From: Bacteroidales bacterium
Lineage (GTDB): Bacteria > Bacteroidota > Bacteroidia > Bacteroidales > UBA1715
Length of the DNA: 64,000 nt
Direction: 5' to 3'
NCBI GenBank assembly: GCA_045615765.1
Contig: JAZLFM010000014.1
Coordinates: 629-64,628, forward strand
The notes under the pieces were generated by a model, which worked only from the letters and a program-made list of their open reading frames with translations, was not told where the DNA came from and did no database searches. Every line of letters starts with the position of its first letter. The stretch's first letter is position 1. The translations under genes were made by a program, and so were the position numbers. Shown here piece by piece: positions 4,833-61,800 of this stretch.

Positions 4833-4856
4833 AAATTCCCGATTGGGATGAGCACA

Positions 4857-4890
4857 AGAAAGCGTCATATTTTTTATGGCGCTTTTTTTA
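4857..4890 (+). terminator. rho-independent terminator after the OmpA-family gene
   Basis: The 8-bp stem AGCGTCAT / ATGGCGCT (one G.U pair) at 4861-4868 and 4876-4883 is followed by a T7 run. Confidence 0.7.
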
Positions 4891-4978
4891 TGCACTGAAA
4901 AATGCAACACATACAGAAAGAACAAAAAATACTTTAGTAAAAACAAAGTCGCATTTAGTATAATTCAAAATAATTTAC

Positions 4979-4986
4979 TATTTTTG
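4979..4986 (+). promoter_or_regulatory. Bacteroidota-type -7 promoter box for pckA
   Basis: TATTTTTG, 66 nt before the ATG at 5053. Confidence 0.55.
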
Positions 4987-5052
4987 CAAGGTTTGAGTTA
5001 CAAGCTCAAATAGGAATAGTTAAGTATTAATTCATAAATAAAAGTACAACAA

Positions 5053-6654
5053 ATGGCAAATTTAGATTTGACAAAGTACGGAATTACAGGTGCAACTGTA
5101 ATCGCCCACAATCCTTCTTATGAAGAATTGTTCAAAGAAGAAACTAAAGCTGGACTAGAAGGCTTTGAAGTTGGTCAAAACACTGAACTACAAGCAGTGA
5201 ATGTAATGACAGGTATCTACACTGGTCGTTCTCCTAAAGACAAATACATTGTAATGGATGAAAATTCTAAAAACACTGTATGGTGGACAACTGAAGGTTA
5301 CAAAAACGACAACCACCCAATGTCAGAAGAAGTTTGGGCTACAGTAAAAGGTCTTGCAGTAAAAGAACTTTGCAACAAAAATCTTTATGTAGTTGATGCT
5401 TTCTGCGGTGCTAACAAAGATACTCGTATGGCTGTTCGCTTCATCGTTGAAGTAGCATGGCAAGCACACTTTGTAACAAACATGTTCATTAAGCCAACTG
5501 CTGAAGAACTTGCTAACTTTACACCTGATTTCGTTGTTTACAATGCTTCTAAAGCAAAAGTAACTAACTTCAAAGAATTAGGTTTGAACTCTGAAACTTG
5601 CGTTGCTTTCAACACAACTTCTAAAGAACAAGTTATCATCAACACATGGTACGGTGGTGAAATGAAGAAAGGTATGTTCTCAATGATGAACTACTATCTT
5701 CCACTTAAAGGTATCGCTTCTATGCACTGTTCTGCAAACTGCGATATGAACGGTGAAAACACTGCTATTTTCTTCGGTCTTTCAGGAACTGGTAAAACAA
5801 CTCTTTCTACAGATCCAAAACGTCGTCTTATCGGTGATGACGAACACGGATGGGATGATAACGGTGTATTCAACTTCGAAGGTGGTTGCTACGCAAAAGT
5901 TATCGGTCTTTCTAAAGAACACGAACCAGATATCTACGGTGCTATCAAACGTAACGCTCTTCTTGAAAACGTTACAGTTGATGCTAATGGTAAAATTGAT
6001 TTCAACGATAAATCAGTTACAGAAAACACTCGTGTTTCTTACCCAATCAACCACATCAACAACATTCAACCAGGATCATCTGCTCCAGCTGCTAAGAATG
6101 TAATCTTCTTGTCTGCTGATGCATTCGGAGTTCTTCCTCCAGTATCTATCTTGACTCCAGCTCAAACTCAATACTATTTCTTGAGTGGTTTCACTGCTAA
6201 ATTGGCTGGTACTGAAAGAGGTATTACTGAACCAACTCCAACATTCTCTGCATGTTTCGGTCAAGCTTTCTTGGAATTGCACCCAACAAAATATGCTGAA
6301 GAATTAGTTAAGAAAATGGAAAAATCAGGTGCTAAAGCTTACTTAGTAAACACTGGTTGGAACGGTACAGGAAAACGTATTTCTATTCCTGATACTCGTG
6401 GTATCATCGATGCTATTCTTGATGGTTCTATCCTTAAAGCTGAAACTAAGAAAATCCCTATGTTCGATTTCGAAGTACCAACAGCTCTTCCAAATGTAAA
6501 CCCAGCTATCCTTGACCCACGCGACACTTACGATTGCGCTTGCAAATGGGAAGAAAAAGCTAAAGACTTGGCTGGTCGTTTCATTAAGAACTTCGAAAAA
6601 TACACAACTAACGAAGCTGGTAAAGCTTTAGTTGCAGCAGGTCCAAAACTATAA
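5053..6654 (+). CDS. pckA: phosphoenolpyruvate carboxykinase (ATP)
   Basis: 533 aa. Kinase-1a P-loop [21 protein letters not shown], and PEPCK-ATP family length. Biased codon usage suggests high expression. Confidence 0.95.
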
Positions 6655-7757: not shown

Positions 7758-8938
7758 TGACTGCAATATTAGTTGTCGATGACGAACGCGCTATTCGTAA
7801 TTCATTAAAAGAAATATTAGAATTTGAAGATTATAGCGTAGAACTTGCTGAAAATGGCGTAGAAGCATTAGAAAAAGTTAAAAACGGCAAATTTGATCTT
7901 GTTTTTTCTGACATAAAAATGCCAGAAATGGATGGAATCACATTACTTGAAGCTATTCTACAAGAAAGAAATGACATGCCTATCATTATGATGTCAGGAC
8001 ATGCCGAAATCGACACAGCAGTAAAAGCAATAAAACTCGGAGCATTTGATTTCATATCTAAGCCATTAGATATGAATAGAATACTTGTAACAGTACGAAA
8101 TGCTTTGGAAAAGAAAAACCTTGTACAAGAAACGACCAAACTAAAACAAGAAACTACAATGTTGAAGAAAAAAATCGGTTCAAAATACCAAATGATAGGT
8201 AAATCTGAACCATTACAAAAAATCTTTGACATTATAAACAAAGTAGCTCCTACCGATGCCCGTGTTCTTATAACTGGCCCAAATGGATCAGGGAAAGAAC
8301 TTATCGCACGAGCTCTTCACAATCAGAGCAATAGAAGCAATGCACCATTTGTAGAAGTCAATTGCGCAGCGATTCCTTCGGAATTGATTGAAAGTGAATT
8401 ATTTGGACACGAAAAAGGGGCTTTCACATCAGCTGTAAAAACTCGTATTGGAAAATTTGAACAAGCAGATGGTGGTACTTTATTTCTAGATGAAATTGGT
8501 GATATGAGTTTAGCTGCTCAAGCTAAAGTATTACGAGCTCTTCAAGAACAGAAAATCACTCGTGTTGGAAGCGACAAAGACATTTCCGTGAATGTACGTG
8601 TACTTGCAGCCACAAATAAAAATATGAAAGAGGAAATAGAAGAAAAACGCTTCCGCGAAGATTTATATCATCGTTTAAGTGTAATTCTAATAAAGAATCC
8701 TTCACTTGCAGAACGCATTGACGACATTCCATTACTAGCGGAACATTTTGTAGATATTTCTTGTCAGGAAATGGGCATACCGAAAAAAACTATTAGTGAC
8801 GCAGCAATAAAGAAACTACAAACTTTCCCATGGACAGGAAATATTCGAGAATTTCGTAATGTGATTGAACGTTTAGTAATTTTAGGAGGAAAGAGCATAG
8901 AGGAAAGCGATGTTGATTTATACACGCAACCTTTATAA
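7757..8938 (+). CDS. sigma-54-dependent response regulator (receiver + AAA+ domain, no C-terminal HTH)
   Basis: 393 aa. Receiver domain ([14 protein letters not shown]), Walker A GPNGSGKE, the sigma-54 contact loop as GAFTSA, and Walker B LFLDEIG. The protein ends right after the AAA+ lid. Its ATG overlaps the rfaE-like stop (TAATG). Confidence 0.85.
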
Positions 8939-49730: not shown

Positions 49731-51041
49731 ATGGAAAAGATTGCTATTTATACAGAATCAAAATTTTTACCTGAGAAGAATTATGTCTTCAAGGTTATAT
49801 TTGAGGAAATTCTTGGCATTACATACGAGGTATTCGATACATCGGTAAGCCAAGTGTATAAAATAGTACTACCGAACGAGAAATTCATAGAGTTCGCCGA
49901 CGACTTTTTTACATATATTCCAGAATCAATAGGATATTGTAAAAAAGCCTATTTGCCACAAAAAGTATGGCAATTAAAAAACGACTTTGGCGAACCTATT
50001 CCTTTTTTCTACGGTTCGAATCGATATACCGACCACGGAAAATCAATTTACTGCGGCTTAGACATTATTGGTAATTCTTTCTTTATGCTCAGCCGTTGGG
50101 AAGAAATGATTGCCGACAAAAAAGATAAACACGGCAGATTTCCAGAAGAAGACGCTTGTGCGGTAAAATTCGGATTAATACAAAAACCTCTTGTACACAT
50201 TTATGCGGAATTTCTACGAAGATTGTTTCAACAATTTGGCTACGAGATTCCTGTGAAACATAAGTATAAAAAAATACTTACACACGATATTGACTATTTG
50301 TACAAATGGGGAACACGCTTTGATTATGTAAAAAATTGCATAGGAGATATATGTAAACGGTTTTCAATAAAATCATTGAAAACGACTATGAATATGTACA
50401 AAAACGGTCAAGATCCGTATGATACCTATCAATATCTTATGGATTTGAGCGAACAAAATGGTCAGAAGTCATTATTTTACTTTTTAAAATCAAAGAAAAA
50501 CGACTTTGAAATCATAACAGAGCGTGGTCAAAAGATAATACAATCTATTATTGCAAGAGGACACAATGTAGCTATACACTCAAACTATTTTCTTGAAGGA
50601 GAATGGCGTGAAATACAAGCCGACAAGGAATATTACGAACGCATTTTCAGTAAGAAGATTGAGCAAAACCGACAACATTATCTTAAAGTAAACATTCCGC
50701 AAACATTTCGTTTGTTGGAAGAAAATGGCATATCCCAAGACAGTAGTTTATACTACTCACATCACTTAGGATTTCGTACAGGAATGTGTATAGAACATTC
50801 TCTTTTCGATTGCGAGCGAAGAAGAATCCTAAAATTAAAAGAACTGCCGTTGACCCTTATGGATATTTCCCTACAGAATGCACGGAAATACGACGAGGCT
50901 GTAGAAATGGTTGACACATTGATAGAAACCGTAAAAAAATATAATGGAACATTTGTATGCTTATGGCATAACAGCAGTTTCAATTCTCCTGAATGGAGAT
51001 ATTTAGCAGGAATTTACGAGCACATTGTAGAAGCGAAATAA
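49731..51041 (+). CDS. hypothetical protein (possibly a divergent NodB-like/polysaccharide-deacetylase fold in the C-terminal half)
   Basis: 436 aa. The only hints are weak motifs (ILTHDIDYL, VAIHSNY, NRQHYLK). Position between the HIT gene and aroC. Confidence 0.5.
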   Translation: MEKIAIYTESKFLPEKNYVFKVIFEEILGITYEVFDTSVSQVYKIVLPNEKFIEFADDFFTYIPESIGYCKKAYLPQKVWQLKNDFGEPIPFFYGSNRYTDHGKSIYCGLDIIGNSFFMLSRWEEMIADKKDKHGRFPEEDACAVKFGLIQKPLVHIYAEFLRRLFQQFGYEIPVKHKYKKILTHDIDYLYKWGTRFDYVKNCIGDICKRFSIKSLKTTMNMYKNGQDPYDTYQYLMDLSEQNGQKSLFYFLKSKKNDFEIITERGQKIIQSIIARGHNVAIHSNYFLEGEWREIQADKEYYERIFSKKIEQNRQHYLKVNIPQTFRLLEENGISQDSSLYYSHHLGFRTGMCIEHSLFDCERRRILKLKELPLTLMDISLQNARKYDEAVEMVDTLIETVKKYNGTFVCLWHNSSFNSPEWRYLAGIYEHIVEAK

Positions 51042-51069
51042 ATTTCTACATTTACCAAAATTTTAAACG

Positions 51070-52050
51070 ATGAAGAATATATTTGGAGACATATTTAAAG
51101 TTGTGATTTTCGGAGAAAGTCACGGAGATAAAGTCGGAGTTGTCGTAGATGGTTGTCCCGTAGGAATTGACCTATGCGAAGCAGATTTTGACACAGACAT
51201 TCAACGCCGTCGTTCTGGGAAATTAGGCTCTACTCCACGTATTGAAGCTGACATTCCACATATAGTTAGCGGTGTATTCAACGGAAAGACAAATGGTTCT
51301 CCAATTACCATTCTTTTTGAAAATACAAACACAAAATCTGGCGATTACTCGAACTTGGTAAATCATCCAAGACCTGGACACGCTGATTTCACAGCAAAAG
51401 AAAAATTCAAAGGCTACAACGATCCACGAGGCGGCGGACACTTTTCGGGAAGAATTACTCTTGGACTAGTAGCAGCAGGTGTAATTGCAAAGAAAATCGT
51501 TGCACCTATTCAAATTGAAGCAACTTTGACTGAAGTTGGTGGTAGCACAAATATAGAAGAGACTATTAAGGAAGCTATTCGCCGACAAGATTCTATTGGC
51601 GGTATGGTTTCATGTAAATGTACTAATGTGCCTGTAGGACTTGGCGAACCATTTTTTGGTTCTGTTGAATCAGAAATTGCACATATTATGTTTTCGATTC
51701 CAGCAATAAAAAGTATAGATTTCGGTTGCGGCCGCGATGCCGCAAAAATGTACGGAAGCGAACATAACGATATGATTATTGAAGCCTCGGGAAAAACTGC
51801 AACAAACAATGCAGGAGGAATCAATGGCGGAATCACAAATGGCAACGATATAACGTTCTCTGTGGCCGTAAAACCAACAGCAAGCATTTCTCTACCACAA
51901 GACACGTTTAACTTCGCTGACGGCAAAATAGAACCGCTTACAATTGTGGGACGACACGACGCATGCATTGCAGTACGCGTACCAGTAATTGTTGAATGCG
52001 CAGCAGCAATTGTTCTTGCTGACTTAACGCTTAAAGCGAAAGCACAATAA
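51070..52050 (+). CDS. aroC: chorismate synthase (short form)
   Basis: FGESHG, HPRPGHAD and RGGGHFSGR motifs. 326 aa. Confidence 0.9.
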   Translation: MKNIFGDIFKVVIFGESHGDKVGVVVDGCPVGIDLCEADFDTDIQRRRSGKLGSTPRIEADIPHIVSGVFNGKTNGSPITILFENTNTKSGDYSNLVNHPRPGHADFTAKEKFKGYNDPRGGGHFSGRITLGLVAAGVIAKKIVAPIQIEATLTEVGGSTNIEETIKEAIRRQDSIGGMVSCKCTNVPVGLGEPFFGSVESEIAHIMFSIPAIKSIDFGCGRDAAKMYGSEHNDMIIEASGKTATNNAGGINGGITNGNDITFSVAVKPTASISLPQDTFNFADGKIEPLTIVGRHDACIAVRVPVIVECAAAIVLADLTLKAKAQ

Positions 52051-52461
52051 TTATTCCACAACAAATTCAAACACTGTTGATAGTTTAGGATGGGTGACAT
52101 GAATATCACCCATTCCCATTATATCCATACCTATTATCATATCGTAACGTATTAATGGAGCTTCTACAACAGAAGTAAATCCTATTTTTAGATTTCCAAA
52201 CTCTAAATCAACAATATATGATTTTGCCAGAATTGACGAGCCTACAAAACCGCTTACTCTTTTCACGTCAATAGGTATAAGTCCAAGTTCTTGAACCAAA
52301 TTTGTTGATATAACACTAATTGTCGCACCGGTATCCCATAGAGCAGAAACACCCTTTTTTATTTTCAGATCAGGAGAATTTGTCTCATAATCAGAAAGAT
52401 TTAATGTGCAGGGAGTTATCAAGAGATTTGAAATACCATTCTTCACGAAAGAATATCTCAT
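52051..52461 (-). CDS. retropepsin-like (clan AA) aspartic protease
   Basis: Catalytic motif ALWDTGATISVIS and the downstream IIGMDIM segment. 136 aa from the ATG at 52461. Its stop codon directly abuts the aroC stop with no spacer. Confidence 0.7.
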   Translation of the reverse strand: MRYSFVKNGISNLLITPCTLNLSDYETNSPDLKIKKGVSALWDTGATISVISTNLVQELGLIPIDVKRVSGFVGSSILAKSYIVDLEFGNLKIGFTSVVEAPLIRYDMIIGMDIMGMGDIHVTHPKLSTVFEFVVE

Positions 52462-52467
52462 ATCCAA

Positions 52468-52701
52468 TTAATAGTTATAATGAATGATATGAGTTTCTAA
52501 ACTATTCTTCTCACATTTATGAAGAAGGAAATGACCGACACCAAAGTTTGTAACTCCAAAGTCGTATGCAGACCTTGCTTTTTCAAAAGGAAAAACCTGA
52601 CAATTGTCCGAAATAACTAAATAACTACCCTCATAAAGAGACAATAAGTCACTCTCGTGGGCAACATAAAAATCATACTGTTTTTGCAATGGTATTATCA
52701 T
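52468..52701 (-). CDS. small hypothetical protein paired with the aspartic protease
   Basis: 77 aa. Its stop lies 6 nt before the protease ATG, and it has its own -7 box upstream. I have a weak recollection of a DUF5678-like pattern (L..Y.G.YLVISD..V). Confidence 0.5.
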   Translation of the reverse strand: MIIPLQKQYDFYVAHESDLLSLYEGSYLVISDNCQVFPFEKARSAYDFGVTNFGVGHFLLHKCEKNSLETHIIHYNY

Positions 52702-52721
52702 AATTAGGATATTTGGTTTGA

Positions 52722-52729
52722 CAAATATA
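52722..52729 (-). promoter_or_regulatory. Bacteroidota-type -7 promoter box for the small-protein/protease cassette
   Basis: TATATTTG on the minus strand, 20 nt before the ATG at 52701. Confidence 0.55.
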
Positions 52730-52803
52730 TCATTTTAATAAATGATAGCCAAATTGCAAGTTGCTTTTATATAGCAAAAGAATATAAAATCATACACTGT
52801 TCA

Positions 52804-52837
52804 TAAAAAATACCCCAACCGAATTTATCGATTGAGG
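52804..52837 (-). terminator. rho-independent terminator of the four-gene envelope module
   Basis: On the minus strand, CCUCAAUCGA-UAAAU-UCGGUUGGGG forms 10 bp including two G.U pairs that work only on this strand. It is followed by UAUUUUUU. Confidence 0.7.
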
Positions 52838-52876
52838 TAGGACATGTCAAATACTTTTCTTTACTACAACATCTAT

Positions 52877-53761
52877 TTAATCCAAAAACTTTTTAATTGC
52901 TTTTTCTGTTTGAACAGGTAGAGCGGTTTTATAACAAGCATATTTTTGTACTCCCATTTCTGAACACCATTTTCCTAGAAACTCTTTCATTACATCAAAA
53001 TCACTTGGTCGTGACGAATTCGGGTTTAACTCAAGAAATAAAACCTTCGTATCATTAAGATCCTTTCTTGTTGCTATAAATCCTAAATCCTGTGTTGCAA
53101 TAATATCTAAACACTTTGTAGGATTATCTAAACCTTTACTTCGAATAAGATTAGGAAGCAAATATGAGTATCTGTTACCTTGTTGCATCACAGAACTTTG
53201 ATGATATATGTAACCATCGGTTACAACAATAAATATGTTATTATAATCATCATCTTTATATAAATCTATTTCATCTTTAAAAAATCTCCAAATATCACAA
53301 CCAACCCAAGAGTTAGATTGTATGCTCATATCATAAATCTTTCGTAATGAAGAAGTAAATATACTATCCATATTGTCGTAATAATACTTTTTGGTTTTAT
53401 TATCCATTGGACCTAAATCTACAACTAATGTTTTTGCGAGAGATGCGATTGTTGAATTTGATGGTGCTGGAGAAAATACTACTTGAATTTTTCCTTTTGC
53501 CATATAAGCGCCTTTTGCCCTCATATCCTCCTTAAAGTATTTTACGACATTAGACACTATTGCCAAATCTCTTTCTGTGTGATTTGGAGTATCTGTAGCT
53601 ATAATTCTATCTGATAAATCAAGCAAAATAGTAACATTAAGTTGTTTTGTTGATATTTCCACAGATTCCTCTGTACCTTTACCATTTCCATCTACTTCTG
53701 ATACACACGAAGAGAACAAAGAAATACCCAATGTTAAAAATGCAAATACTGTCTTTTTCAT
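52877..53761 (-). CDS. lipoprotein with a possible vWA-like/Rossmann-like domain
   Basis: Lipobox LFSSC. Beta-strand plus acidic motif VTILLDLSDRI and, later, IFIVVTDGYI, as in vWA domains. The MIDAS motif would be degenerate (DxSxR). Confidence 0.6.
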   Translation of the reverse strand: MKKTVFAFLTLGISLFSSCVSEVDGNGKGTEESVEISTKQLNVTILLDLSDRIIATDTPNHTERDLAIVSNVVKYFKEDMRAKGAYMAKGKIQVVFSPAPSNSTIASLAKTLVVDLGPMDNKTKKYYYDNMDSIFTSSLRKIYDMSIQSNSWVGCDIWRFFKDEIDLYKDDDYNNIFIVVTDGYIYHQSSVMQQGNRYSYLLPNLIRSKGLDNPTKCLDIIATQDLGFIATRKDLNDTKVLFLELNPNSSRPSDFDVMKEFLGKWCSEMGVQKYACYKTALPVQTEKAIKKFLD

Positions 53762-53769
53762 TTCAATAA

Positions 53770-55002
53770 TTATTTAGAAATCTCACCTATTGTATTTTGA
53801 CCTGTAAGCCTTATCTGTTCTTGTTCATTTTTTGCCTTGCCCACACCTGCCAAAAAATTCATCCAACCGGCCAAATAACTATTCAAACAATCGACTAAGA
53901 TATTTACAGGATAAACAACATAATTCAATTCATTTTCTTTTGCTTTTATCTCAATATTTTTTGTTTTGATTTCACTTTCAATCTTTTCTATGTCGTTTTT
54001 ATATTCATTACATTGTTTTTTCTTATACCGTATTTTTTCATCTAAATTATCTATTGCAACTTTTACAACATTCAACTTTGCATGTGCATCCATTACAAAA
54101 TCAAAAACAAAACCCCAGATTAAATAAACAACAAAACCAGAAAAAATAATAAGCCAAAATTCAGGACTCTGAAAAGCTATTTTGAAATCATATTCTGGCA
54201 TGATTTCAAAAGTACCATTTTTTACAAAATCATAAGCTTTTTTCTCAATAACATATGCAATAAGAACATCATACACAAAAGTAACGGCAACTAAGGAGCC
54301 TATTTTTATATATTTCGAGAAACCTTTCCCTTGACCAAACTTATATATTAGATAACCTAAACCCAAGAAAACAAAAGGGATACACATTATAAACAGTGCC
54401 TGTGTCCAACTTCCCGCCAATGCGTTTGGAACTGCATCAGGATCTAGTACCTTTGCTTGAAAGTTTAATTCATCATGACTTGTAAACACTCTAAACATTG
54501 CCGTATAAGTCGCAGAAGAATAAAAAAGCCATAGATATAATGTCATCGCCAATATTATTATAACTCCGATTCTAAATCCAACCTTATCAGTCGGATTTTC
54601 CACGATTAAAGTTGGATTATTTTTTATATTAGCAATTTCCGCCTTAGATTTTTCAATGTTTTCCTCCGCTAAATTTAAATCATTTACTATTTTTTCCTTT
54701 TTTATTTCAAGACCAGCTTTGTCCCCTTCCAGACTAACAATTTCATTTTTTATTCTAGTTCGCTCTCTTTCTTGAATTGCACTATCAGCAGCAAGTTCTG
54801 CTTGCAACTTTGCCTTTGCTGCATGTAAATTAGGAATTAACGCCGCTTCTGATCCTCCAACTTTTCCTGCATCAGAAAAGCCAAGCGATTTATAGTTTTG
54901 CTTACGAACAGAATTATCATCATTTACAGCACTATTAATCGATTGGTTCGTCTTATCTACTTTATCAACACCCAAAAGAGTTTTAAAAATCTTCAAATCC
55001 AT
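53770..55002 (-). CDS. membrane protein: N-terminal coiled coil, four TM helices, C-terminal coiled coil
   Basis: 410 aa. Heptad-rich segments at about residues 60-135 and 315-365. TM helices at IGVIIILAMTLYLWLF, ALFIMCIPFVFLGLGYLIY, IGSLVAVTFVYDVLIAYVI and FWLIIFSGFVVYLIWGFVF. Confidence 0.65.
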   Translation of the reverse strand: MDLKIFKTLLGVDKVDKTNQSINSAVNDDNSVRKQNYKSLGFSDAGKVGGSEAALIPNLHAAKAKLQAELAADSAIQERERTRIKNEIVSLEGDKAGLEIKKEKIVNDLNLAEENIEKSKAEIANIKNNPTLIVENPTDKVGFRIGVIIILAMTLYLWLFYSSATYTAMFRVFTSHDELNFQAKVLDPDAVPNALAGSWTQALFIMCIPFVFLGLGYLIYKFGQGKGFSKYIKIGSLVAVTFVYDVLIAYVIEKKAYDFVKNGTFEIMPEYDFKIAFQSPEFWLIIFSGFVVYLIWGFVFDFVMDAHAKLNVVKVAIDNLDEKIRYKKKQCNEYKNDIEKIESEIKTKNIEIKAKENELNYVVYPVNILVDCLNSYLAGWMNFLAGVGKAKNEQEQIRLTGQNTIGEISK

Positions 55003-55009
55003 AACTCTA

Positions 55010-55396
55010 CTATGCTAATTCATTTAACAATTGTTCTTCCGTTATGCCATTTTTTACACCTTCAAAAAGAAAATCTGCAATAGAATGAATATTCTCTGTT
55101 GGAAAACCCATTTTTGCACAAATAGATTCAACCATTCTTCTTTCTTCTTCTTGAATTTCACCATCTGCCCAAGCTAATTGAACCAAATCGTATAGCATAA
55201 TTACTTTTTCTTCTATAGTATCTGGCAAATAATTTGAACCACCAGGTTTCATAACTACAGCATTAATTTCTTCTGTTGTTACTCCTCTTTTTTTCCCTAT
55301 TTCATAAAGAACACTTAATTCTCGAGGATCAATTCTGCCATCAGCTAACATTAAAGCATAAATTCTTAAAAAATGTGCTTTTAACTTTTCATTCAT
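55010..55396 (-). CDS. TerB-like (tellurite-resistance TerB / DjlA N-terminal type) domain protein
   Basis: 128 aa. Paired acidic helix motifs LADGRIDPRELSVL and WADGEIQEEERRMV are typical of the TerB fold. Confidence 0.7.
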   Translation of the reverse strand: MNEKLKAHFLRIYALMLADGRIDPRELSVLYEIGKKRGVTTEEINAVVMKPGGSNYLPDTIEEKVIMLYDLVQLAWADGEIQEEERRMVESICAKMGFPTENIHSIADFLFEGVKNGITEEQLLNELA

Positions 55397-55413
55397 ACAT
55401 AAAATTTTTAATA

Positions 55414-55629
55414 TTATCTATACCATTCACAAACACCACGATGATGAGAACAAGTTCCTTGATGATTTTGACTATAACTATACGTTCCATCACAACAACG
55501 AGCTGTTGGACCTTGATATTTATACTCCATAACTTCACTTAATGATTCCCAAGTTGTTTCCTTTGGATTGCCTGCAAAATTTGCACATGACAACAGTAAC
55601 ATGGTCGCAAGGCTTAAAAATTTCTTCAT
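55414..55629 (-). CDS. small secreted/lipoprotein with a DUF3761-like Cys/His motif
   Basis: 71 aa. Signal with LLSC lipobox. C-terminal ARCCDGTYSYSQNHQGTCSHHRGVCEW matches the C.DG..S.S....G.CS.HGGV..W pattern I recall for DUF3761. Confidence 0.65.
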   Translation of the reverse strand: MKKFLSLATMLLLSCANFAGNPKETTWESLSEVMEYKYQGPTARCCDGTYSYSQNHQGTCSHHRGVCEWYR

Positions 55630-55664
55630 CTTTTTCTATATTTTTTGTTTTCACCTATGGGCAT

Positions 55665-55695
55665 AAAAAAAGCGTGAAACTTACCGTCTCCCGCT
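55665..55695 (-). terminator. intrinsic terminator at the 3' end of the structured leader, 35 nt upstream of the DUF3761-like ATG
   Basis: On the minus strand, AGCGGGAGAC-GGUAA-GUUUCACGCU (10 positions: 8 Watson-Crick, one G.U, one mismatch) is followed by U7. Confidence 0.7.
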
Positions 55696-55810
55696 CTATG
55701 AGGTGTTTGGCGTAACCTGAATACACGAAATAAGTAAAGCCCACGCCGTAGCATGAACATAGTCACTTATTTCTTTTGTATTCTATTATAGTCGCCAAAC
55801 TTTCATAGAG
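55694..55810 (-). ncRNA. candidate structured RNA (cis-regulatory leader or sRNA), class unknown
   Basis: Nested perfect helices: 55694-55701 with 55803-55810 (8 bp), 55706-55712 with 55793-55799 (7 bp), 55719-55725 with 55777-55783 (7 bp), and 55727-55735 with 55765-55773 (9 bp). No ORF. The strand is inferred from the adjoining minus-strand terminator. Confidence 0.45.
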
Positions 55811-55841
55811 AAAGAAATAAAGCTCAATGCTTCTAATATGT

Positions 55842-55876
55842 CAAAATCACATTTGTGATTCCTTTACAAATGTGAT
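55842..55876 (-). promoter_or_regulatory. imperfect -7 box (TGATTTTG) overlapped by an 11-bp perfect inverted repeat (possible operator)
   Basis: ATCACATTTGT-N9-ACAAATGTGAT at 55846-55856 and 55866-55876. TGATTTTG on the minus strand at 55842-55849. A TTTG lies 17 nt upstream on the minus strand. Confidence 0.35.
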
Positions 55877-55884
55877 AATTATTT

Positions 55885-55923
55885 TCAAAAAAAGCAAATC
55901 AATCCGAAGATCAATTTGCTTTC
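55885..55923 (-). terminator. rho-independent terminator after lysA
   Basis: On the minus strand, GCAAAUUGAUC-UUCG-GAUUGAUUUGC (11 bp including two G.U pairs, UUCG tetraloop) is followed by U7. Confidence 0.8.
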
Positions 55924-55947
55924 ATATTCTAACTATATGGTTTTCTA

Positions 55948-57207
55948 CTATTTAAAATCCTTTAAACCAGCAAAATCAAGAGTCGCAAATAAATCTTCAA
56001 CAGTTTCGGCGCGGCGAATCATTTTCACGCTACCATCTGTTCTTAACAACAATTCTGCAGAACGAAGTTTTCCATTGTAGTTGAAGCCCATTGCATGACC
56101 ATGAGCGCCTGCATCGTGGATTGCAATTATATCACCAACTTCAACTTCTGGCAATTCACGATGAATAGCAAACTTATCGTTGTTCTCACAAAGCGAACCT
56201 GTTACATCATAAACATGATCGCAAGGAGCATTTTCCTTACCAAGAACTGTAATATGATGATATGCGCCATACATACCAGGACGCATTAAGTTATTCATAC
56301 TAGCATCAACGCCAACATATTCACGGAAAGTATGTTTTAAGTGACGAACTGTTGTCACCAAATATCCATAAGGTCCTGTGATAAAACGACCTGACTCTAA
56401 GTATAATTTAACAGGAGCTAGACCATTTGGAACCAATATAGATTCATACTCTTTACGAATTCCTTCGCTGATTTTGAACACATCCAATTTCTTTTGTTCT
56501 GGGCGATATGGTATTCCCAATCCACCACCAAGGTTAATGAAATCGAACTTTATACCTAATTGTTTATTGATTTTCACAACAAGGTTGAAAAGTATTCGAG
56601 CTGTTTCAACGAAATATTCTTCATTCAATTCATTCGAAGCTACCATTGTATGAATACCAAAGCGTTTCACACCTTTATCCATCAACATTTTATATCCTTC
56701 GAACAATTGGTTTTCCATACAACCATATTTGGCTTCTTCAGGATTACCAATAATATCATTACCAGATTTTAAGCTACCTGGGTTATAACGGAAAGACACC
56801 AATTCTGGAATACCTGCACATTTTTCCAAGAAAGCAACATGCGAAATATCGTCAAGATTGATGATAGCACCCAATTCTTTTGCTTTCTTGAATTCGTAAT
56901 CGCCAGTATCGTTCGAAGTGAACATAATGTTTTCGCCAACATTGCCAACTTGTTCTGAAATTAATAGCTCAGGATAAGAACTACAATCACAGCCGAAACC
57001 ATGTTGAGCCAACAACTTTGCCAAATATGGATTTGGAGCAGCTTTTACTGCAAAATATTCATGAAAACCTTCATTCCAAGCAAATGCTTTTTTTAATTCT
57101 TCTGCATTTTCCAAAATTGCTTTTTCATCATAAATATGAAAAGGCGTTGGGAACTGTTTTATAATTTCTTGTATTTTTTCTTTTGAAAAAGGAAGTGTTT
57201 TTGCCAT
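55948..57207 (-). CDS. lysA: diaminopimelate decarboxylase (PLP-dependent, group IV decarboxylase fold)
   Basis: 419 aa from MAKTLPFSKEK. YFAVKAAPNP (PLP lysine), GGGLGIPY, ESGRFITGP and CENNDKF. The upstream 18 codons in the ORF track overlap the -7 box. Confidence 0.8.
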   Translation of the reverse strand: MAKTLPFSKEKIQEIIKQFPTPFHIYDEKAILENAEELKKAFAWNEGFHEYFAVKAAPNPYLAKLLAQHGFGCDCSSYPELLISEQVGNVGENIMFTSNDTGDYEFKKAKELGAIINLDDISHVAFLEKCAGIPELVSFRYNPGSLKSGNDIIGNPEEAKYGCMENQLFEGYKMLMDKGVKRFGIHTMVASNELNEEYFVETARILFNLVVKINKQLGIKFDFINLGGGLGIPYRPEQKKLDVFKISEGIRKEYESILVPNGLAPVKLYLESGRFITGPYGYLVTTVRHLKHTFREYVGVDASMNNLMRPGMYGAYHHITVLGKENAPCDHVYDVTGSLCENNDKFAIHRELPEVEVGDIIAIHDAGAHGHAMGFNYNGKLRSAELLLRTDGSVKMIRRAETVEDLFATLDFAGLKDFK

Positions 57208-57227
57208 AATTCCAATTATTAGTAATG

Positions 57228-57235
57228 CAAAATTA
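57228..57235 (-). promoter_or_regulatory. Bacteroidota-type -7 promoter box for lysA
   Basis: TAATTTTG on the minus strand, 20 nt before the ATG at 57207. Confidence 0.55.
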
Positions 57236-57384
57236 AAATTTCTCGTTCGAAATACAACCATTTCACATGATTTATCTTAAAGTATTTAATGTTTGTCAAA
57301 CGACTTGTTCGAAAAGAAATTTACATCATAAAAAAAAGATTGAAATATTTTTCACATTTCTATTGGAAATATAAAAAATAGAGT

Positions 57385-57392
57385 TACTTTTG
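57385..57392 (+). promoter_or_regulatory. Bacteroidota-type -7 promoter box for tRNA-Pro
   Basis: TACTTTTG, 12 nt before the first tRNA nucleotide. Confidence 0.6.
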
Positions 57393-57404
57393 CATCGTTA
57401 AAAA

Positions 57405-57479
57405 CGGGGTATAGTACAGTCCGGTTAGTATGCTTGGTTTGGGACCAAGAGGTCGCAGGTTCGAATCCTGCTACCCCGA
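57405..57479 (+). tRNA. tRNA-Pro (anticodon TGG)
   Basis: Hand-folded cloverleaf. Acceptor CGGGGTA/TACCCCG, anticodon stem CTTGG/CCAAG with loop TTTGGGA, T arm GCAGG-TTCGAAT-CCTGC, 5-nt variable loop, discriminator A. No encoded CCA. Confidence 0.95.
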
Positions 57480-57484
57480 CACTG

Positions 57485-57517
57485 AAAGGAACAAGAAATT
57501 GTTCCTTTTTTGTTTTT
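57485..57517 (+). terminator. rho-independent terminator after tRNA-Pro
   Basis: AAAGGAACAA-GAAA-TTGTTCCTTT (10 bp, GNRA loop) followed by TTTTGTTTTT. Confidence 0.85.
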
Positions 57518-57623
57518 ACCCCTATTGTAATTGCAACCCCGTTAGAAGCTGCACAAACGAAGGAAAGGTTACTTTACAACCAAGAGGTTTTTCCTACGGA
57601 ATATATTCTCACACACTATCGTT

Positions 57624-57660
57624 TGAAAACAAAAAGAGACCATCGTTTCCGACAGCCTCT
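57624..57660 (-). terminator. rho-independent terminator after the 57687-58814 gene
   Basis: On the minus strand, AGAGGCUGUCG-GAAA-CGAUGGUCUCU (11 bp including G.U pairs) is followed by UUUUGUUUUC. Confidence 0.75.
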
Positions 57661-57686
57661 TATGTTATTTATAGGAATAGAAACTT

Positions 57687-58814
57687 CTATTTATACGAAA
57701 TCTGACGAGTCATAGTTTTTGTCTTTCCATTCTCTACAACTGTTAAAGAAATCCAATTACCTTGTGCGTCGAATTCATAGGTATATTGACATAGGGAACG
57801 ACCGTTCACACTTTTCACAACACAATTTTGTTCATTGTATTCACACTGAAACATTGGAGTCATCTCACCATTTTCCTGTTTTTTCTGAACCTTTACTATT
57901 CTATTCTTACCATCACGGTTCATCACACAATAATCATAACGATAACCGTCATAACTTGAATATTCGACCAAGTTTCCTACTGAGTCATACACCATAGTGT
58001 TTGTTTCGGAACTAATCAATGGAGGATTTCTCTTTGCACGTTTAAAATAACCTTTGTTTACCTTAGAAAGCTTTCCGTTTTCATAAAAGTACATAGAACT
58101 TTCAACCATTGGGCTATTTGTATATGATTTAATTTGCTGTTGTAATGCCTTGTTTTTGTATGTAAAATCAAAAACTGCATCACGAGAATTGTTGCTTGCA
58201 GTAACAATTTTCTCTTTCATTAAACCATTACCTTTATAATCGTACAAGTACATAGCATCTATAGCCCATTCACGCACACTAGAGCCTAATATTTCCAACA
58301 AATAAATTCGAGGAGAAGTAAGCGTTTTGCTCCAGCCGTCAAGGAAAATATAATCATCAGTAACTATTAACTTTGAAGAATTATAATCACCTGATAAAGT
58401 CTTTTTTTCAGAATTCGGATATAAGCAAGCCTCACTAGCCACACGACCTTTTTTATCGTAAGTAATTGCGATAATTTTATCTACAAGATTAACAACTTCC
58501 ACTTGGTTGTTTTCGTTATAAGTTAGCTTACAAAGTACATTTCCTTCACTCGTAATTTCTTTTAATTGTCCAAGTTCATTATAAGCACAAGCATACTGAA
58601 CTCCATCCTTTTGAACTGTGATTTTTTCAACAGAACCTGCCGCCAACGCGAACTCGAAATTAGACTGAAGTATTGCTGGCAAAGAATATTCCAGACGATT
58701 CGCCATTAAATTCTTTGGAGAAAATGTTGTTGAAACTTCATCTGCCGTAAGCATCTGTGCAAACGAACAAACAGAGAAAAACACCAATATAAAAACGCTA
58801 ACTATATGTTTCAT
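57687..58814 (-). CDS. secreted hypothetical protein with YD/RHS-like short repeats
   Basis: Signal peptide MKHIVSVFILVFFSVCSFAQ. Recurring Y(N/D)..G.L/V..-type segments (AYNELGQLKEI, TYDKKGRVASE, VYDSVGNLVEY, EFDAQGNWISL). Confidence 0.65.
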   Translation of the reverse strand: MKHIVSVFILVFFSVCSFAQMLTADEVSTTFSPKNLMANRLEYSLPAILQSNFEFALAAGSVEKITVQKDGVQYACAYNELGQLKEITSEGNVLCKLTYNENNQVEVVNLVDKIIAITYDKKGRVASEACLYPNSEKKTLSGDYNSSKLIVTDDYIFLDGWSKTLTSPRIYLLEILGSSVREWAIDAMYLYDYKGNGLMKEKIVTASNNSRDAVFDFTYKNKALQQQIKSYTNSPMVESSMYFYENGKLSKVNKGYFKRAKRNPPLISSETNTMVYDSVGNLVEYSSYDGYRYDYCVMNRDGKNRIVKVQKKQENGEMTPMFQCEYNEQNCVVKSVNGRSLCQYTYEFDAQGNWISLTVVENGKTKTMTRQISYK

Positions 58815-58825
58815 CGCTATTCTTT

Positions 58826-58865
58826 TTCAAAAAAACAAAAGGCCATCCTATCGGACAGCCTTTTT
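58826..58865 (-). terminator. hairpin terminator between the giant adhesin gene and the next gene
   Basis: On the minus strand, AAAAGGCUGUCC-GAUA-GGAUGGCCUUUU is followed by a U-rich run. The stem sequence is related to the 57635-57660 hairpin. Confidence 0.7.
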
Positions 58866-58877
58866 ATTACATTACAA

Positions 58878-61800
58878 TTATTTCTTTATAAAACTTGATC
58901 TTGCTTTTACCTTATGGTTATTTGAAACAACAATATAATATAAGCCTGATGTCAAATTATTCACTGATATTTCCTGATTTTCTGAATCTGCAGTAAGAGT
59001 CATCACTGTCTTTCCTGAAGCAGAAACGAATTGAATCAAATCACCTTCTGTAACGCCCGCAACAGTAATCATTGAACTTGCAACTGAAGGATAAGCAAGA
59101 ATAGATGTTGCAACTATATCGTCAACCGCAGTAGTAGCCATGTGATATTCAAAATTAGGAACAGAAGCACCATATAATGAACTCAATGAGTTACCTTTAT
59201 ATTCAATAACGATATCATTTGGATCATCGATATATGAACCAAGAGAAATTACAATTCGGTTAGGATTCAATGGCCACAATGAAACATTTTTCACATTGTA
59301 CATTGGGATTTCTTTTCCATAAACATATAATTCTGAATAAACATTTGGAGCAGGCTCACTCATACTTTCTGCGAAGTCAAGATATAACTGATCGCCCTTC
59401 AAACTCATTTCTACAGAGATGATTTCAGGAACCTTTGTTACAACTACAACCATTCTATCGCTTAATGCTGCATTATTTGTATAAGAAACAGAGATTGCTG
59501 TACTACCAGCTTGTTTTGCCTCAATCATACCTGAACCATATACCTGAGCAACTGAATTATTTGAAGATGTCCAAGTAAAGTTTGTATAATCTGAAGTTGC
59601 ACCTACAGGATTCAAAATTAATTCTGGAGTATATTTTTGACCTTCCACCAAATAGATTTTGTCAGCCTCAAATGCAACACTTGTTAACTCATTCTTGATT
59701 TCAGAGTTCAAGAATGCTGTGATTGCATTTTGTAATGATAACACAGCCGAATTAACAATATTTTGACTTGTTGGATTGCTGTTCAACACATTATTAGCGG
59801 CAGCAATTTCATTTTGCAACATATTGAAACTTTCAGCAGGAATATTGCCAACAGAAGTTCCTTTCTTAGATTCATTTATAGAAGCAGTTGTTATAGCCTC
59901 TTGAATTTTTTGTTGCAACTTAGACAAATCTACGCCATCAATTTTGCTTGCCATAAATGCATCCATAGCAGCCTTTAAGTCAGCAACTTGCTTGTCTAAA
60001 TCTGCTTGTGTATATGACATATAATCATCATAATAACTTTGTGCTACTCGAATTGCTTGATTCAATATCACCTTCGCTGACGATGGGTATAGATTGTCAT
60101 CGGCATACATTGCAGAAATACTGTTTGCAAGCGTAATGGTTTGTCCCAATTCTGTTCTATCAAGAGTTGCACCTTTCGTAACAGTAATCTTTGTTGTAGC
60201 AGTGTTAGAACAACCATTCAAATCTTCGTATGTATAAGAGATAGTATAAACACCCACACCTACAGAAGGGTCAAACTTAGAACCAGTCACTCCGTTTCCA
60301 CTAAATACACCACCTGCAGGAGAAGCCGAGATAGCAACAGGAGAATCGTCTGTTGTTAAAGCATCTACCGACGAAACCGAAACTAATGGTAATTCATATA
60401 CATGCAAAGCAACCTTTGTTGCAGGACTTTGACAAGTTGTCTTTTGTACTACATAGTAATAATATGTACCAGCAGCAGTAACACTTGGACTAAATGTTTT
60501 TGTTGAAGCAACTGATTTCGTTAATGCAGCATCAGAATACCATACTACAGAATTTGTTGCGCTTGTTGAGAATGAAGGAGCTATTCCTTCAGCACACATT
60601 GATTGTTCGGCTTTACTAACAACAGGAGCAGTCAAATCACAATCAGATATTTGTAAACTTACTGGAGTTTTTTCAGATGAACATCCTGTCGATTTATTTG
60701 ATACTACTACATAATATGTATATGTTCCTATTTCTGTTTGTTTTGTAGGGAAACTGCTTCCTGTACCAACCGAAGCATTATTGTAATACCATGTTACAGT
60801 ATTATCTGTACTTGTTGCAACTTTCAAATCAGGAATAGTTGAACCAAATGTTGCAGTAACATCAGTCACAGTAAATTCAGGAGCTTCATTAATAGAATAT
60901 GTAACAGTTGTTGCTTGGCTATAGCATCCATCTACATATTGTTTTACTAAATATGTTCCCGCTACAGCAGGAGAATATGTATTGCCCTTTGAAAGTTCAG
61001 TATTGTCGGCAGAATACCAAATTGAAACAACATCTGCACTAAATGTACCTTTTTCACCTTCGCAAACCGAAACATTTGATACAACTGGTTTTGCAGGAAT
61101 AGCATTTTCTATCAATGTTACAGGAACCTTAGTACTTTCACAACCTGCTAATTCTTGATACACCAAGTATCTTCCTGTTGTCGCCGTAGAGAAAGAGTTT
61201 GTAGAACTTACTTTCTTACCACTTTCATCTTCCCAAATCCAAGTTGCTTTTGCATCACCTGTTGCTAAGAATGTAACCTTTTCTGATGTCCCAGCACAAA
61301 TTGATTGTGTTGCATTAGTAACTCTAGGAGCAGACAAATTACAATCTTTCACAACCGTCACTGTTACTTGAGCAGACTTGCTAGAACCATCTTCGGTAGT
61401 TACAGTTACTGTAATAACGACATCAGTATTTTCCTCAACAGCCGAAGCAGAAACAACACCATCTTCTACAGAAACTATAGAAGAAGATGCAGACCATGTA
61501 ATATTCTTTATTGAAGCATCGGAAGGATTTATAACAACATAATTTGATATATCTACAAAATTACCTTCTGGAACTGTCAAGTCTTTTGTATTATTGAATG
61601 ACACTGATTCTACAGGAGCTACTACAGAAATCTCACAACTAACAGACTTTGTATTTGTATATGTAGATGTTGCAGTAATTGTTGCTGTACCAGCACCAAC
61701 GGCAGTAATTTTTCCATTTGCATCTACAGTTACAACCTTAGGATTTGAAGAAACCCAAGAAACTGTTGTAGGTGCTTCTTTAGGAGTAATAGTTAGAACG

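Follow-up and report, generated by a model that had tools for sequence, protein, structure and literature searches.

A conserved TerB-containing three-gene envelope cassette of Bacteroidota, headed by a structured leader RNA in a Bacteroidales genome

Introduction

Judged by architecture, the closest experimentally characterised analogue of the locus described here is Dionysus, a system of Pseudomonas that consists of DinA (MAEBL and a transmembrane (TM) segment), DinB (TerB-like), and DinC (alpha-pore-forming, with four TM segments). Each of the three proteins is required, the system blocks the early infection vesicles of jumbo phages, and it was reported only from Gamma- and Betaproteobacteria (bioRxiv 10.1101/2025.09.30.679545). 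TerB domains are also present in Bunzi and Shango, and the same study put forward the idea that TerB is a membrane-surveillance module (bioRxiv 10.1101/2025.09.30.679545), a speculation that has likewise been summarised for the TerB-like domain of DjlA (PMC11709261). Here, we analysed a locus on the minus strand of a 64,000-nt stretch of DNA from a Bacteroidales bacterium of the UBA1715 lineage (contig JAZLFM010000014.1, positions 629 to 64,628; hereafter, the window). A TerB gene (B), a gene for a coiled-coil, four-TM protein (C), and a gene for a lipoprotein with a fold like that of von Willebrand factor A (vWA) domains (D) are found there behind a small DUF3761 gene (A) and a structured leader RNA.

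The B-C-D cassette shares with Dionysus the number of genes, a small TerB-like protein, a four-TM alpha-helical protein, a membrane-anchored third protein, the absence of an enzymatic effector, and a proposed role in membrane surveillance. It differs in that the third component is a vWA lipoprotein instead of a MAEBL-like TM protein, no MAEBL-type protein being encoded here, and in that the coiled coil and the four TM helices lie within one protein. As the two were compared by architecture only, Dionysus is an analogue, and action on phage vesicles is known for Dionysus alone. A first-pass annotation of the window, made from the sequence letters, had not recognised the architecture as a described system. 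This holds for PADLOC, where no system was matched, but the architecture is not without a described counterpart, because Dionysus is analogous and validated.

The Ter cluster (terZABCDE/TerY-P) also brings TerB and vWA together in a membrane-associated accessory locus. Here, however, TerC, TerD, TerA, TerZ, TerE, a kinase, and a PP2C phosphatase are all missing, the vWA protein is exported as a lipoprotein and has Arg where a canonical metal ion-dependent adhesion site (MIDAS) has its second Ser, and the membrane partner belongs to an unrelated coiled-coil/4-TM family. The first-pass annotation had already pointed out the lack of TerC/TerD, kinases, phosphatases, and ATPases, and Pfam scans and PADLOC runs on the proteins of the island described below agreed with it. 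No TerC or TerD-family protein (TerA/D/E/Z) was found by Pfam in the six island proteins or among the most frequent families of 139 neighbouring open reading frames (ORFs), and no kinase or phosphatase of the TerY-P type was encoded in the island or recurrent among the neighbours.

Shango (SngA, with TerB-N, plus an ATPase and a helicase) and Bunzi (BnzA) have in common with the cassette a TerB-type domain, which serves against phages in those systems, whereas no ATPase or helicase is encoded here and the partners are membrane or exported proteins. In E. coli DjlA and YebE (DUF533), a cytoplasmic TerB-like domain is likewise found at the inner membrane, but B is a separate soluble protein, has no J-domain, and scores far under the cut-offs of these families. 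The Bat/MoxR-vWA systems of Bacteroides and the vWA-MoxR ternary systems also place a vWA protein in an envelope or conflict locus of Bacteroidota, while the present locus has no MoxR AAA+ ATPase and D is a single-domain lipoprotein; TerB is not mentioned in the corresponding survey of vWA conflict systems (PMC7159879). A literature search by sequence returned nothing relevant. The cassette falls among TerB-containing membrane conflict or stress systems and is accompanied by a cis-regulatory RNA family that is possibly new.

Results

Genes B, C, and D Form the Conserved Unit

On the minus strand, genes A (55414-55629, 71 aa), B (55010-55396, 128 aa), C (53770-55002, 410 aa), and D (52877-53761, 294 aa) follow one another with gaps of only 17, 7, and 8 nt. 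The A-B-C-D unit ends at an intrinsic terminator at 52804-52839 (-), whose stem (52839-52811) and T-run are formed on the minus strand only. Both the close packing and the strand-specific terminator were as described in the first-pass annotation, which had taken the four genes together as one module.

When one genome for each species (185,579 species genomes) was scanned with a degenerate pattern, 280 loci with a relative of C were obtained. The locus statistics reported here are those of the best 80 of these 280 loci (L numbers), which were examined by tblastn and ORF clustering with ORFs from a naive ATG-ORF finder. C was present in 79 of the loci, D in 76, and B was located directly upstream of C in 67. 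The order was always B-C-D on one strand, with B-C gaps of mostly 1-4 nt and C-D gaps of -4 to about 20 nt (about 70 of the 80 loci). The triad was observed in Bacteroidia, Flavobacteriia, Chitinophagia, Sphingobacteriia, Cytophagia, Saprospiria, and one metagenome-assembled genome of Ignavibacteria. An exhaustive profile search with C returned 921 clusters at 50% identity, 735 of them at E <= 1e-10, and nearly all of the 150 best matches listed were about 410 aa long. In some Pedobacter loci, a DUF6804 membrane protein occupies the TerB position, and TerB is missing altogether from two Chitinophaga loci; C and D are thus the tightest pair.

The product of gene A is a Cys/His-rich, lipoprotein-like mini-protein, and its assignment to DUF3761 (PF12587) was confirmed with an E-value of 2.6e-13 and 50.7 bits against a gathering cut-off of 29. 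Its gene was absent from 78 of the 80 loci. It stands beside the triad only in L001, a near-identical relative, and in L030, a DUF3761 gene is found at another position, about 540 nt downstream of D. The idea of a four-gene module was therefore not sustained: co-occurrence across other genomes was found for B-C-D, but for A only in L001. Since it accompanies the triad only in L001, A is a co-transcribed passenger outside the conserved module, and the conserved unit consists of the three genes B-C-D.

In Runella sp. SP2, C and D are fused in a protein of 704 aa, which is also the sole plasmid match of C. Residues 43-421 align with the C profile (hhalign probability 99.5%, E 1.4e-22) and residues 467-702 with the D profile (98.2%, E 5.9e-14), and an extra hydrophobic helix is present between the two parts. 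A fusion with such an intervening helix argues for a physical complex of C and D, in which the vWA domain would lie outside the inner membrane. The fusion gene is located inside a type III-B CRISPR-Cas locus that comprises cmr4-6, csx2, and a WYL regulator in divergent orientation, followed by a primase-polymerase gene and by cas2 and cas1. A 93%-identical copy was found on a metagenomic contig in the same context, and another fused relative, 46% identical, is flanked by SIR2_2, a TraG-like ATPase, and a giant caspase-TPR protein. A candidate TerB-C fusion in a 560-aa relative (P0291) was rejected, as this protein is merely C with expanded coiled-coil repeats.

Predicted Features of the B, C, and D Proteins

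B is a cytoplasmic, stand-alone TerB domain protein, as the first-pass annotation had proposed: residues 62-106 match TerB (PF05099) with an E-value of 1.1e-7 and 32.6 bits, above the gathering cut-off of 24.4, and neither a TM segment nor a signal peptide was predicted in B. Two acidic repeats (D...D..E and WADG..D..E) are conserved across 67 B homologues and probably bind metal. Over the second repeat, B also matched DUF533 (E 1.1e-5) and a DjlA model (E 1.2e-7), far under the cut-offs of both families. The PADLOC models gave a weak match to BnzA (E 0.004) and a stronger, still domain-level one to the candidate PDC-S48 (E 1.4e-5).

The AlphaFold2 model of C is all-helical (predicted local distance difference test, pLDDT, 82), with hydrophobic helices at residues 140-165, about 197-223, 231-253, and 280-304, flanked by long helices; the protein is laid out as coiled coil, four TM helices, and a second coiled coil with a helical bundle, in the inner membrane. 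The short loop between TM2 and TM3 (loop 2) is basic (KR/DE 3/0) and the remaining loops are acidic or neutral, so that an N-in/C-in topology is predicted with both coiled coils in the cytoplasm. The first-pass description of a coiled-coil protein with four TM helices therefore stands, but not the placement of coiled coils on both faces of the membrane. Invariant or nearly invariant polar residues of the family lie in or near TM2 and TM3 (H220, K221, D245, and E251), and Asp187 is invariant in the first periplasmic loop. No relative of C was found in Pfam, NCBIfam, or PADLOC, nor, by profile comparison with all PDB chains, in the PDB beyond coiled-coil noise; the weak PADLOC matches concerned the coiled-coil parts of LmuB and JetC. 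In L032, a truncated copy of C (177 aa, 2410-2889) lies directly before the full-length gene (3000-4088).

D has a signal peptide and a lipobox, the Cys19 of which is at least 90% conserved. No Pfam or NCBIfam match was obtained for D, its family profile matched no PDB sequence, and VWA_2 was reached by one of 30 D relatives (E 0.06). The AlphaFold2 model (pLDDT 87.2, predicted TM-score 0.83) has an alpha/beta fold, and all seven Foldseek matches at E <= 0.001 were vWA domains (TFIIH p44 and the PilB and SpaC adhesins; best E 1e-4), with TM-scores of just 0.3-0.4; later matches were mostly vWA as well (factor B/C2a, integrin I, and Rpn10). The MIDAS loops were invariant in the 30 relatives, with D48-L-S50-D-R52 after beta1, D156 before a helix, and T181-D182-G183 after beta4. 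Compared with the canonical DxSxS...T...D, Arg stands at the position of the second Ser and Asp at that of the Thr. As the fold and the motif positions fit but no VWA hidden Markov model was matched, we accept D as having a vWA-like fold with a putative, modified MIDAS, on the basis of the model, and not as a vWA member by sequence; the vWA claim of the first-pass annotation held to that extent. C and D represent two uncatalogued families, for which there is no Pfam, NCBIfam, or PADLOC model.

The Cassette Lies in a Recently Exchanged Island

The GC content of 52804-55876 was 31.8%, compared with 35.9 +/- 1.5% for all 3-kb windows (z = -2.75), and was the minimum of the 64 kb. This windowed calculation bore out the low GC that had been estimated by hand counts in the first-pass annotation and had hinted at horizontal acquisition. 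Stronger support for such an acquisition came from the comparison with L001, which is also a Bacteroidales bacterium of UBA1715. In lysA and aroC, the two sequences are 82-92% identical at the nucleotide level, and in the ORF at 49731-51041 about 76% identical, whereas 55920-54821 and 53920-52122 are 98-100% identical, with 91-95% in D at 53520-53121. The 98-100% identical stretch covers the leader, A, B, the ends of C, most of D, and two further genes, E and F. The contrast with the flanks indicates a recent exchange of the island between lineages that had diverged.

Within the island, the centre of C (54820-53921, about aa 61-360) is only 57-67% identical between the window and L001, and the protein of a third C allele (P0002) shows 83% identity. 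From the alignment, it looks as if the coiled-coil/TM core of C had been replaced by a very different allele, in a cassette-type replacement. No flanking repeats, mobile-element ends, or extra leader copies were detected within the window.

A Structured Leader RNA with Its Own Terminator Precedes the Genes

Downstream of the lysA stop (55948) and the lysA terminator, the minus strand holds, in this order, a palindrome, a long hairpin, a terminator hairpin, and gene A. The region 55800-55630 (-) folds at -56.2 kcal/mol, compared with -32.2 +/- 4.0 kcal/mol for shuffled sequences (z = -6.0), and none of 200 shuffles reached the same value. On the basis of this fold, of a covariance model, and of covariation in 28 members, the structured leader RNA was placed at 55659-55814 (-). 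It consists of a long rod-like hairpin followed by a terminator hairpin. P1 (8 bp, 55810-55803 with 55701-55694) is followed by an AAA bulge, P2 (8 bp, 55800-55793 with 55712-55705), an internal loop (.../GGUUA), and a long P3, whose apical hairpin (55758-55751 with 55746-55739) has the form CACG-loop-GCGUGGGC. After ACC(U) comes the intrinsic terminator at 55694-55665, made up of the hairpin GCGGGAGAC/GUUUCACGC (55694-55672) and a U7 run (55671-55665), and the first ATG is about 35 nt further on. The structured leader with its own terminator, as claimed in the first-pass annotation, was therefore recovered.

A sequence block that is conserved upstream of the leader family ends in TAGCTTTA in most members, 7-8 nt 5' of P1. 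In the window, the alignment of the upstream regions gives the near-match GAGCTTTA at 55818-55825 (-). The block resembles the -7 box of Bacteroidetes, and we infer that it is the promoter of the leader transcript. No TAnnTTTG box, even in relaxed form, was found on the minus strand of 55950-55630, in agreement with the earlier statement that none lies between the leader terminator and the first ATG. The arrangement is that of an attenuator: a leader, a GC-rich hairpin, a U-run, a co-oriented gene, and no promoter box in between. As the promoter lies 5' of a leader ending in a terminator, expression of the genes would need terminator read-through. Directly 5' of the leader, the perfect 13-bp palindrome (ATCACATTTGT...ACAAATGTGAT, 55846-55876, no strand) may serve as an insulator, terminator, or operator; a hairpin of different sequence is present at the equivalent position in other family members.

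The Leader Belongs to a Family with Mixed Client Genes

The covariance model found a single copy of the leader in the window (143 bits; E-values of this model are rough, owing to a shortened calibration). Rfam 15 gave no relevant match at E <= 10 on 55620-55900, no match at all at E <= 1 on 50000-59000, and no gathering-score match at the leader position in 11 loci. In L048, from a rumen Bacteroidales, the leader is 73.5% identical to that of the window over 185 nt and directly precedes TerB, whereas the B, C, and D proteins are only 34-44% identical to those of the window. The covariance model placed a leader upstream of TerB in L001 and L048 and divergent copies directly upstream of TerB in L005, L019, L036, L078, L012, and L065; in L007, a copy lies one gene further upstream. 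The leader family precedes TerB modules in at least nine other Bacteroidales loci. An exact 18-mer from the conserved 3' block was found at 31 metagenomic sites, 22 of them with the 5' partner GTTTGGCG at the right distance; the remaining nine are expected chance matches. In L013, the leader (3616-3761, -) lies on the opposite strand, before another gene, of 366 aa and oriented divergently to the TerB cassette, and the TerB gene there has no leader.

Each pair of P1 is canonical in 24-28 of the 28 sense copies, with three to four canonical pair types per position. P2 covaries fully in divergent copies (e.g., CUUCAAC/GUUGAAG and ACCGCCA/UGGCGGU); it appears invariant among the metagenomic copies because the search pattern imposed an ascertainment. 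The apical stem covaries as well. The terminator with its U7 run is kept in most members, and a methyltransferase-linked subfamily has, in place of the U-run terminator, another hairpin that uses the 3' strand of P1. Readings of the leader as an attC site, an invertible promoter, or a miniature inverted-repeat transposable element were rejected, as there is one copy per locus, no arrays were seen, and pairing is kept by compensatory changes; the conserved inverted repeat, moreover, has a polarity opposite to that of attC.

The segment before the U-run can pair with the 3' strand of the apical stem in a mean of 6.56 of 7 positions, compared with 5.24 in shuffled sequences, and a 7/7 match was found in 60% of types against 5% of the shuffled ones; because the segment resembles the apical 5' strand, these values are not independent proof of an anti-terminator. 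In the window, 55746-55739 is complementary to 55680-55672, the 3' strand of the terminator, and the same positions are complementary in 27 other leaders. Compensatory changes in this pairing were observed in L036, L012, L078, and L106. Together with the complementarity itself, they suggest a possible anti-terminator pairing.

The downstream gene was co-oriented in every locus with enough contig, and started about 40-190 nt past the terminator, mostly at no more than about 90 nt. Besides TerB modules, the client genes encode a C5 methyltransferase with a helix-turn-helix, N6/N4 methyltransferases, an SRA-domain protein, a 769-aa protein with an NPPY motif, a protein with a type IX secretion tail, a Fib_succ lipoprotein, and several small secreted proteins. 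The leader is thus not private to the operon, since it also heads methyltransferase, SRA, and secreted-protein genes elsewhere. Transcription-attenuator leaders and cis-regulatory RNAs of the riboswitch type, such as the Rfam DUF805 and DUF805b motifs of Bacteroidales, are similar in being structured 5' leaders with an intrinsic terminator directly upstream of co-oriented clients. The present family differs from them in its rod-like shape, its conserved internal loops, the absence of a corresponding Rfam 15 family, and its clients, which are mixed accessory and defence genes rather than a single pathway. The DUF805b motif itself (RF02914) was found above the gathering threshold between the leader terminator and the next gene at L019:5448-5482 and L007:4612-4643, and in L002, a DUF805 protein gene lies directly 5' of TerB. 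We regard the leader as a generic and portable 5' module of attenuator type that serves accessory genes of Bacteroidales and has the TerB cassette among its frequent clients. In the window, a unit of leader and small secreted protein and the B-C-D unit appear to have been joined.

Neighbouring Genes and Other Features

The genes that flank the triad are mostly locus-specific. Recurrent neighbours were DUF6804 (14 loci), a lipoprotein staphylococcal nuclease (SNase; 11 loci), DUF1508/YegP (eight loci), and an HSDR_N nuclease-like protein (six loci), the HSDR_N and SNase neighbours being found in Pedobacter and Flavobacteriia loci. In eight Chitinophaga loci (L014, L022, L031, L033, L038, L041, L049, and L068), a co-oriented string of genes directly 5' of the cassette (about 3000-5500) encodes a caspase (Peptidase_C14), a TIR-TM-FGE-sulfatase protein, and DUF1508/YegP, and TerB is missing in two of the eight. 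In L058, L072, L075, L076, L080, and others, a small secreted protein that is rich in Cys and has no Pfam match (about 69 aa) is encoded directly 3' of D (about 8150-8900). Loci of this type also have the lipoprotein SNase homologue directly 3' of D and DUF6804 directly 5' of the cassette, where it replaces TerB in some and precedes TerB in L076.

In the window, genes E (52468-52701, 77 aa) and F (52051-52467, 138 aa) form a separate minus-strand unit (52051-52729) with its own TATATTTG box at 52729. E belongs to no family and abuts F without a gap; F is a retropepsin-like aspartic protease (Asp_protease_2, E 3.8e-9; PADLOC candidate PDC-M08B, E 9.8e-6). The unit was co-transferred with the island and is outside the TerB module although it lies inside the same exchanged stretch. 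Further away, a tRNA gene is located at 57405-57479 (+), just past lysA, and 57627-57752 (-) gave a weak match to the Bacteroides GibS small RNA model, with a terminator at its end; at 37 bits, this match stays well under the gathering score of 115.

Discussion

We favour, with moderate confidence, the view that B-C-D is a membrane-acting conflict or defence module, over a Ter-like role in stress homeostasis. The three genes would form a self-contained, mobile cassette for a complex that spans the membrane. C, an N-in/C-in inner-membrane protein with four helices, presumably oligomerises through its two cytoplasmic coiled coils, the vWA-like domain of D would be docked on C at the periplasmic face, and the TerB domain of B would join the cytoplasmic part of C. 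D, and possibly TerB too, may sense an event at the envelope or membrane, such as phage entry, and C, with the polar residues of TM2 and TM3 found in the family (H220, D245, and E251), could act as transducer or effector in the membrane. Transcription of A-B-C-D would start before the structured leader of about 145 nt and depend on passage through the intrinsic terminator at its end.

This role is supported by the patchy spread of the cassette, the recent exchange of the island, and the divergent cassette inside C. Further support comes from the fusion in CRISPR-Cas loci, from the SIR2_2/caspase-TPR, TIR-FGE, HSDR_N, and SNase contexts, and from a leader that also heads genes for C5 methyltransferases, N6/N4 methyltransferases, and an SRA protein. 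Dionysus and the TerB domains of Bunzi and Shango (bioRxiv 10.1101/2025.09.30.679545) point the same way. Several results weigh against it. PADLOC-DB v2 matched no system among the six island proteins and holds no model for C or D, and Foldseek searches with the C model returned only dynein, SMC, and chemoreceptor coiled coils, without a recognisable effector fold; the ClyA/AhlB match, with an E of about 0.6, was not significant. The interaction of B with C is deduced from gene order alone. The CRISPR-embedded fusion is essentially a single lineage, tblastn of C found no homologue in 50,697 phage records and one plasmid match, and the neighbours are housekeeping genes at many loci. When the 139 nearest ORFs were compared with 109 distal ones in PADLOC, strong single matches occurred in both sets and redundant models of type I S-subunits blurred the counts; as the distal control set also has matches, an enrichment of defence genes is unproven. 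Finally, the C protein of the window has Y for H220 and V for E251, whereas at least 90% of the family keeps His and Glu. The L001 allele retains the consensus H220 (end of TM2) and E251 (TM3), and the allele of the window could be either a weakened copy or a variant with a functional difference.

A module for envelope or metal stress of the Ter type, without an immune role, is a possible but less probable explanation. In such a scheme, TerB would bind a signal, metal or lipid, at the inner leaflet, D would bind a ligand or cation in the periplasm, and C would couple both and adjust the membrane or envelope. TerB and DUF533/DjlA-type domains have classically been tied to stress, B matches the DUF533 and DjlA models, and such a role has been discussed (PMC11709261). 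The conserved acidic repeats of B, the partly kept MIDAS of D, the housekeeping neighbours, and a core without a nuclease, protease, or NTPase effector would also fit. The scheme accounts less well for the patchy spread, the recent horizontal exchange, the hypervariable cassette in C, the fused version in CRISPR-Cas loci and beside SIR2 and caspase genes, the leader in common with restriction-modification genes, and the lack of TerC, TerD, and TerA.

Regarding the leader only, it could be argued that this element is a small-RNA gene in its own right, with a promoter and a terminator, that happens to lie upstream of accessory genes and is not a cis-acting attenuator. A strong U7 terminator is kept in most members, a promoter-like block is conserved upstream, and the downstream genes are functionally mixed. 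We nevertheless consider this less probable, because, on contigs of sufficient length, the following gene is in every case on the strand of the leader and close behind the terminator, no promoter box separates the terminator from the first ATG in the window, and the leader moves together with the island. The complementarity between the pre-U segment and the apical 3' strand, with its compensatory changes, and the exchange of the terminator for a hairpin sharing the P1 3' strand in the methyltransferase-linked subfamily also speak for the attenuator.

A structural or adhesive envelope device, i.e., a tether between the inner and outer membranes or a surface vWA adhesin with its anchor, and no sensing or conflict role, appears improbable. 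vWA lipoproteins can act as adhesins, as exemplified by CglB (PMC9946355), pilus adhesins (PilB and SpaC) were returned for D by Foldseek, and K/S-D/E follows the lipobox Cys in several D homologues, a pattern that we read as resembling a surface-export signal of Bacteroidetes. The Runella fusion, however, ties the D domain to the inner membrane by a TM helix right after C, the cytoplasmic TerB partner is conserved, and the cassette occurs in gliding and non-gliding taxa with variable neighbours. A genuine four-gene system with an integral DUF3761 protein is highly improbable: A lies 17 nt from B under the same leader, L030 has its DUF3761 gene 3' of D, and about ten loci have other small Cys-rich secreted proteins at that side, but nearly all loci lack A, the same leader heads TerB directly in L048, and small secreted proteins are common, independent clients of the leader.

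Bacteroidota dominate gut and soil communities, and few defence systems of this phylum have been tested. TerB, C, and D are among the most tightly conserved yet patchy small cassettes of Bacteroidota. The fusion protein offers a concrete physical model, in which a coiled-coil protein with four TM helices carries the vWA domain on its periplasmic side, and the Dionysus precedent is a template for testing such cassettes. Tentatively, and with a probability that we judge to be rather low, both findings might be combined: TerB-C-D would be a new, Bacteroidota-wide system against phages or other mobile genetic elements, with a vWA sensor and a four-TM effector subject to allelic cassette exchange, and the leader would be a new class of cis-regulatory RNA that gates the mobile defensome by conditional read-through. 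The leader, which is rich in covariation, could explain how Bacteroidales control newly acquired genes. If this is true, it would be a shared control switch for their mobile defensome, comprising restriction-modification methyltransferases, SRA, secreted proteins, and the TerB module.

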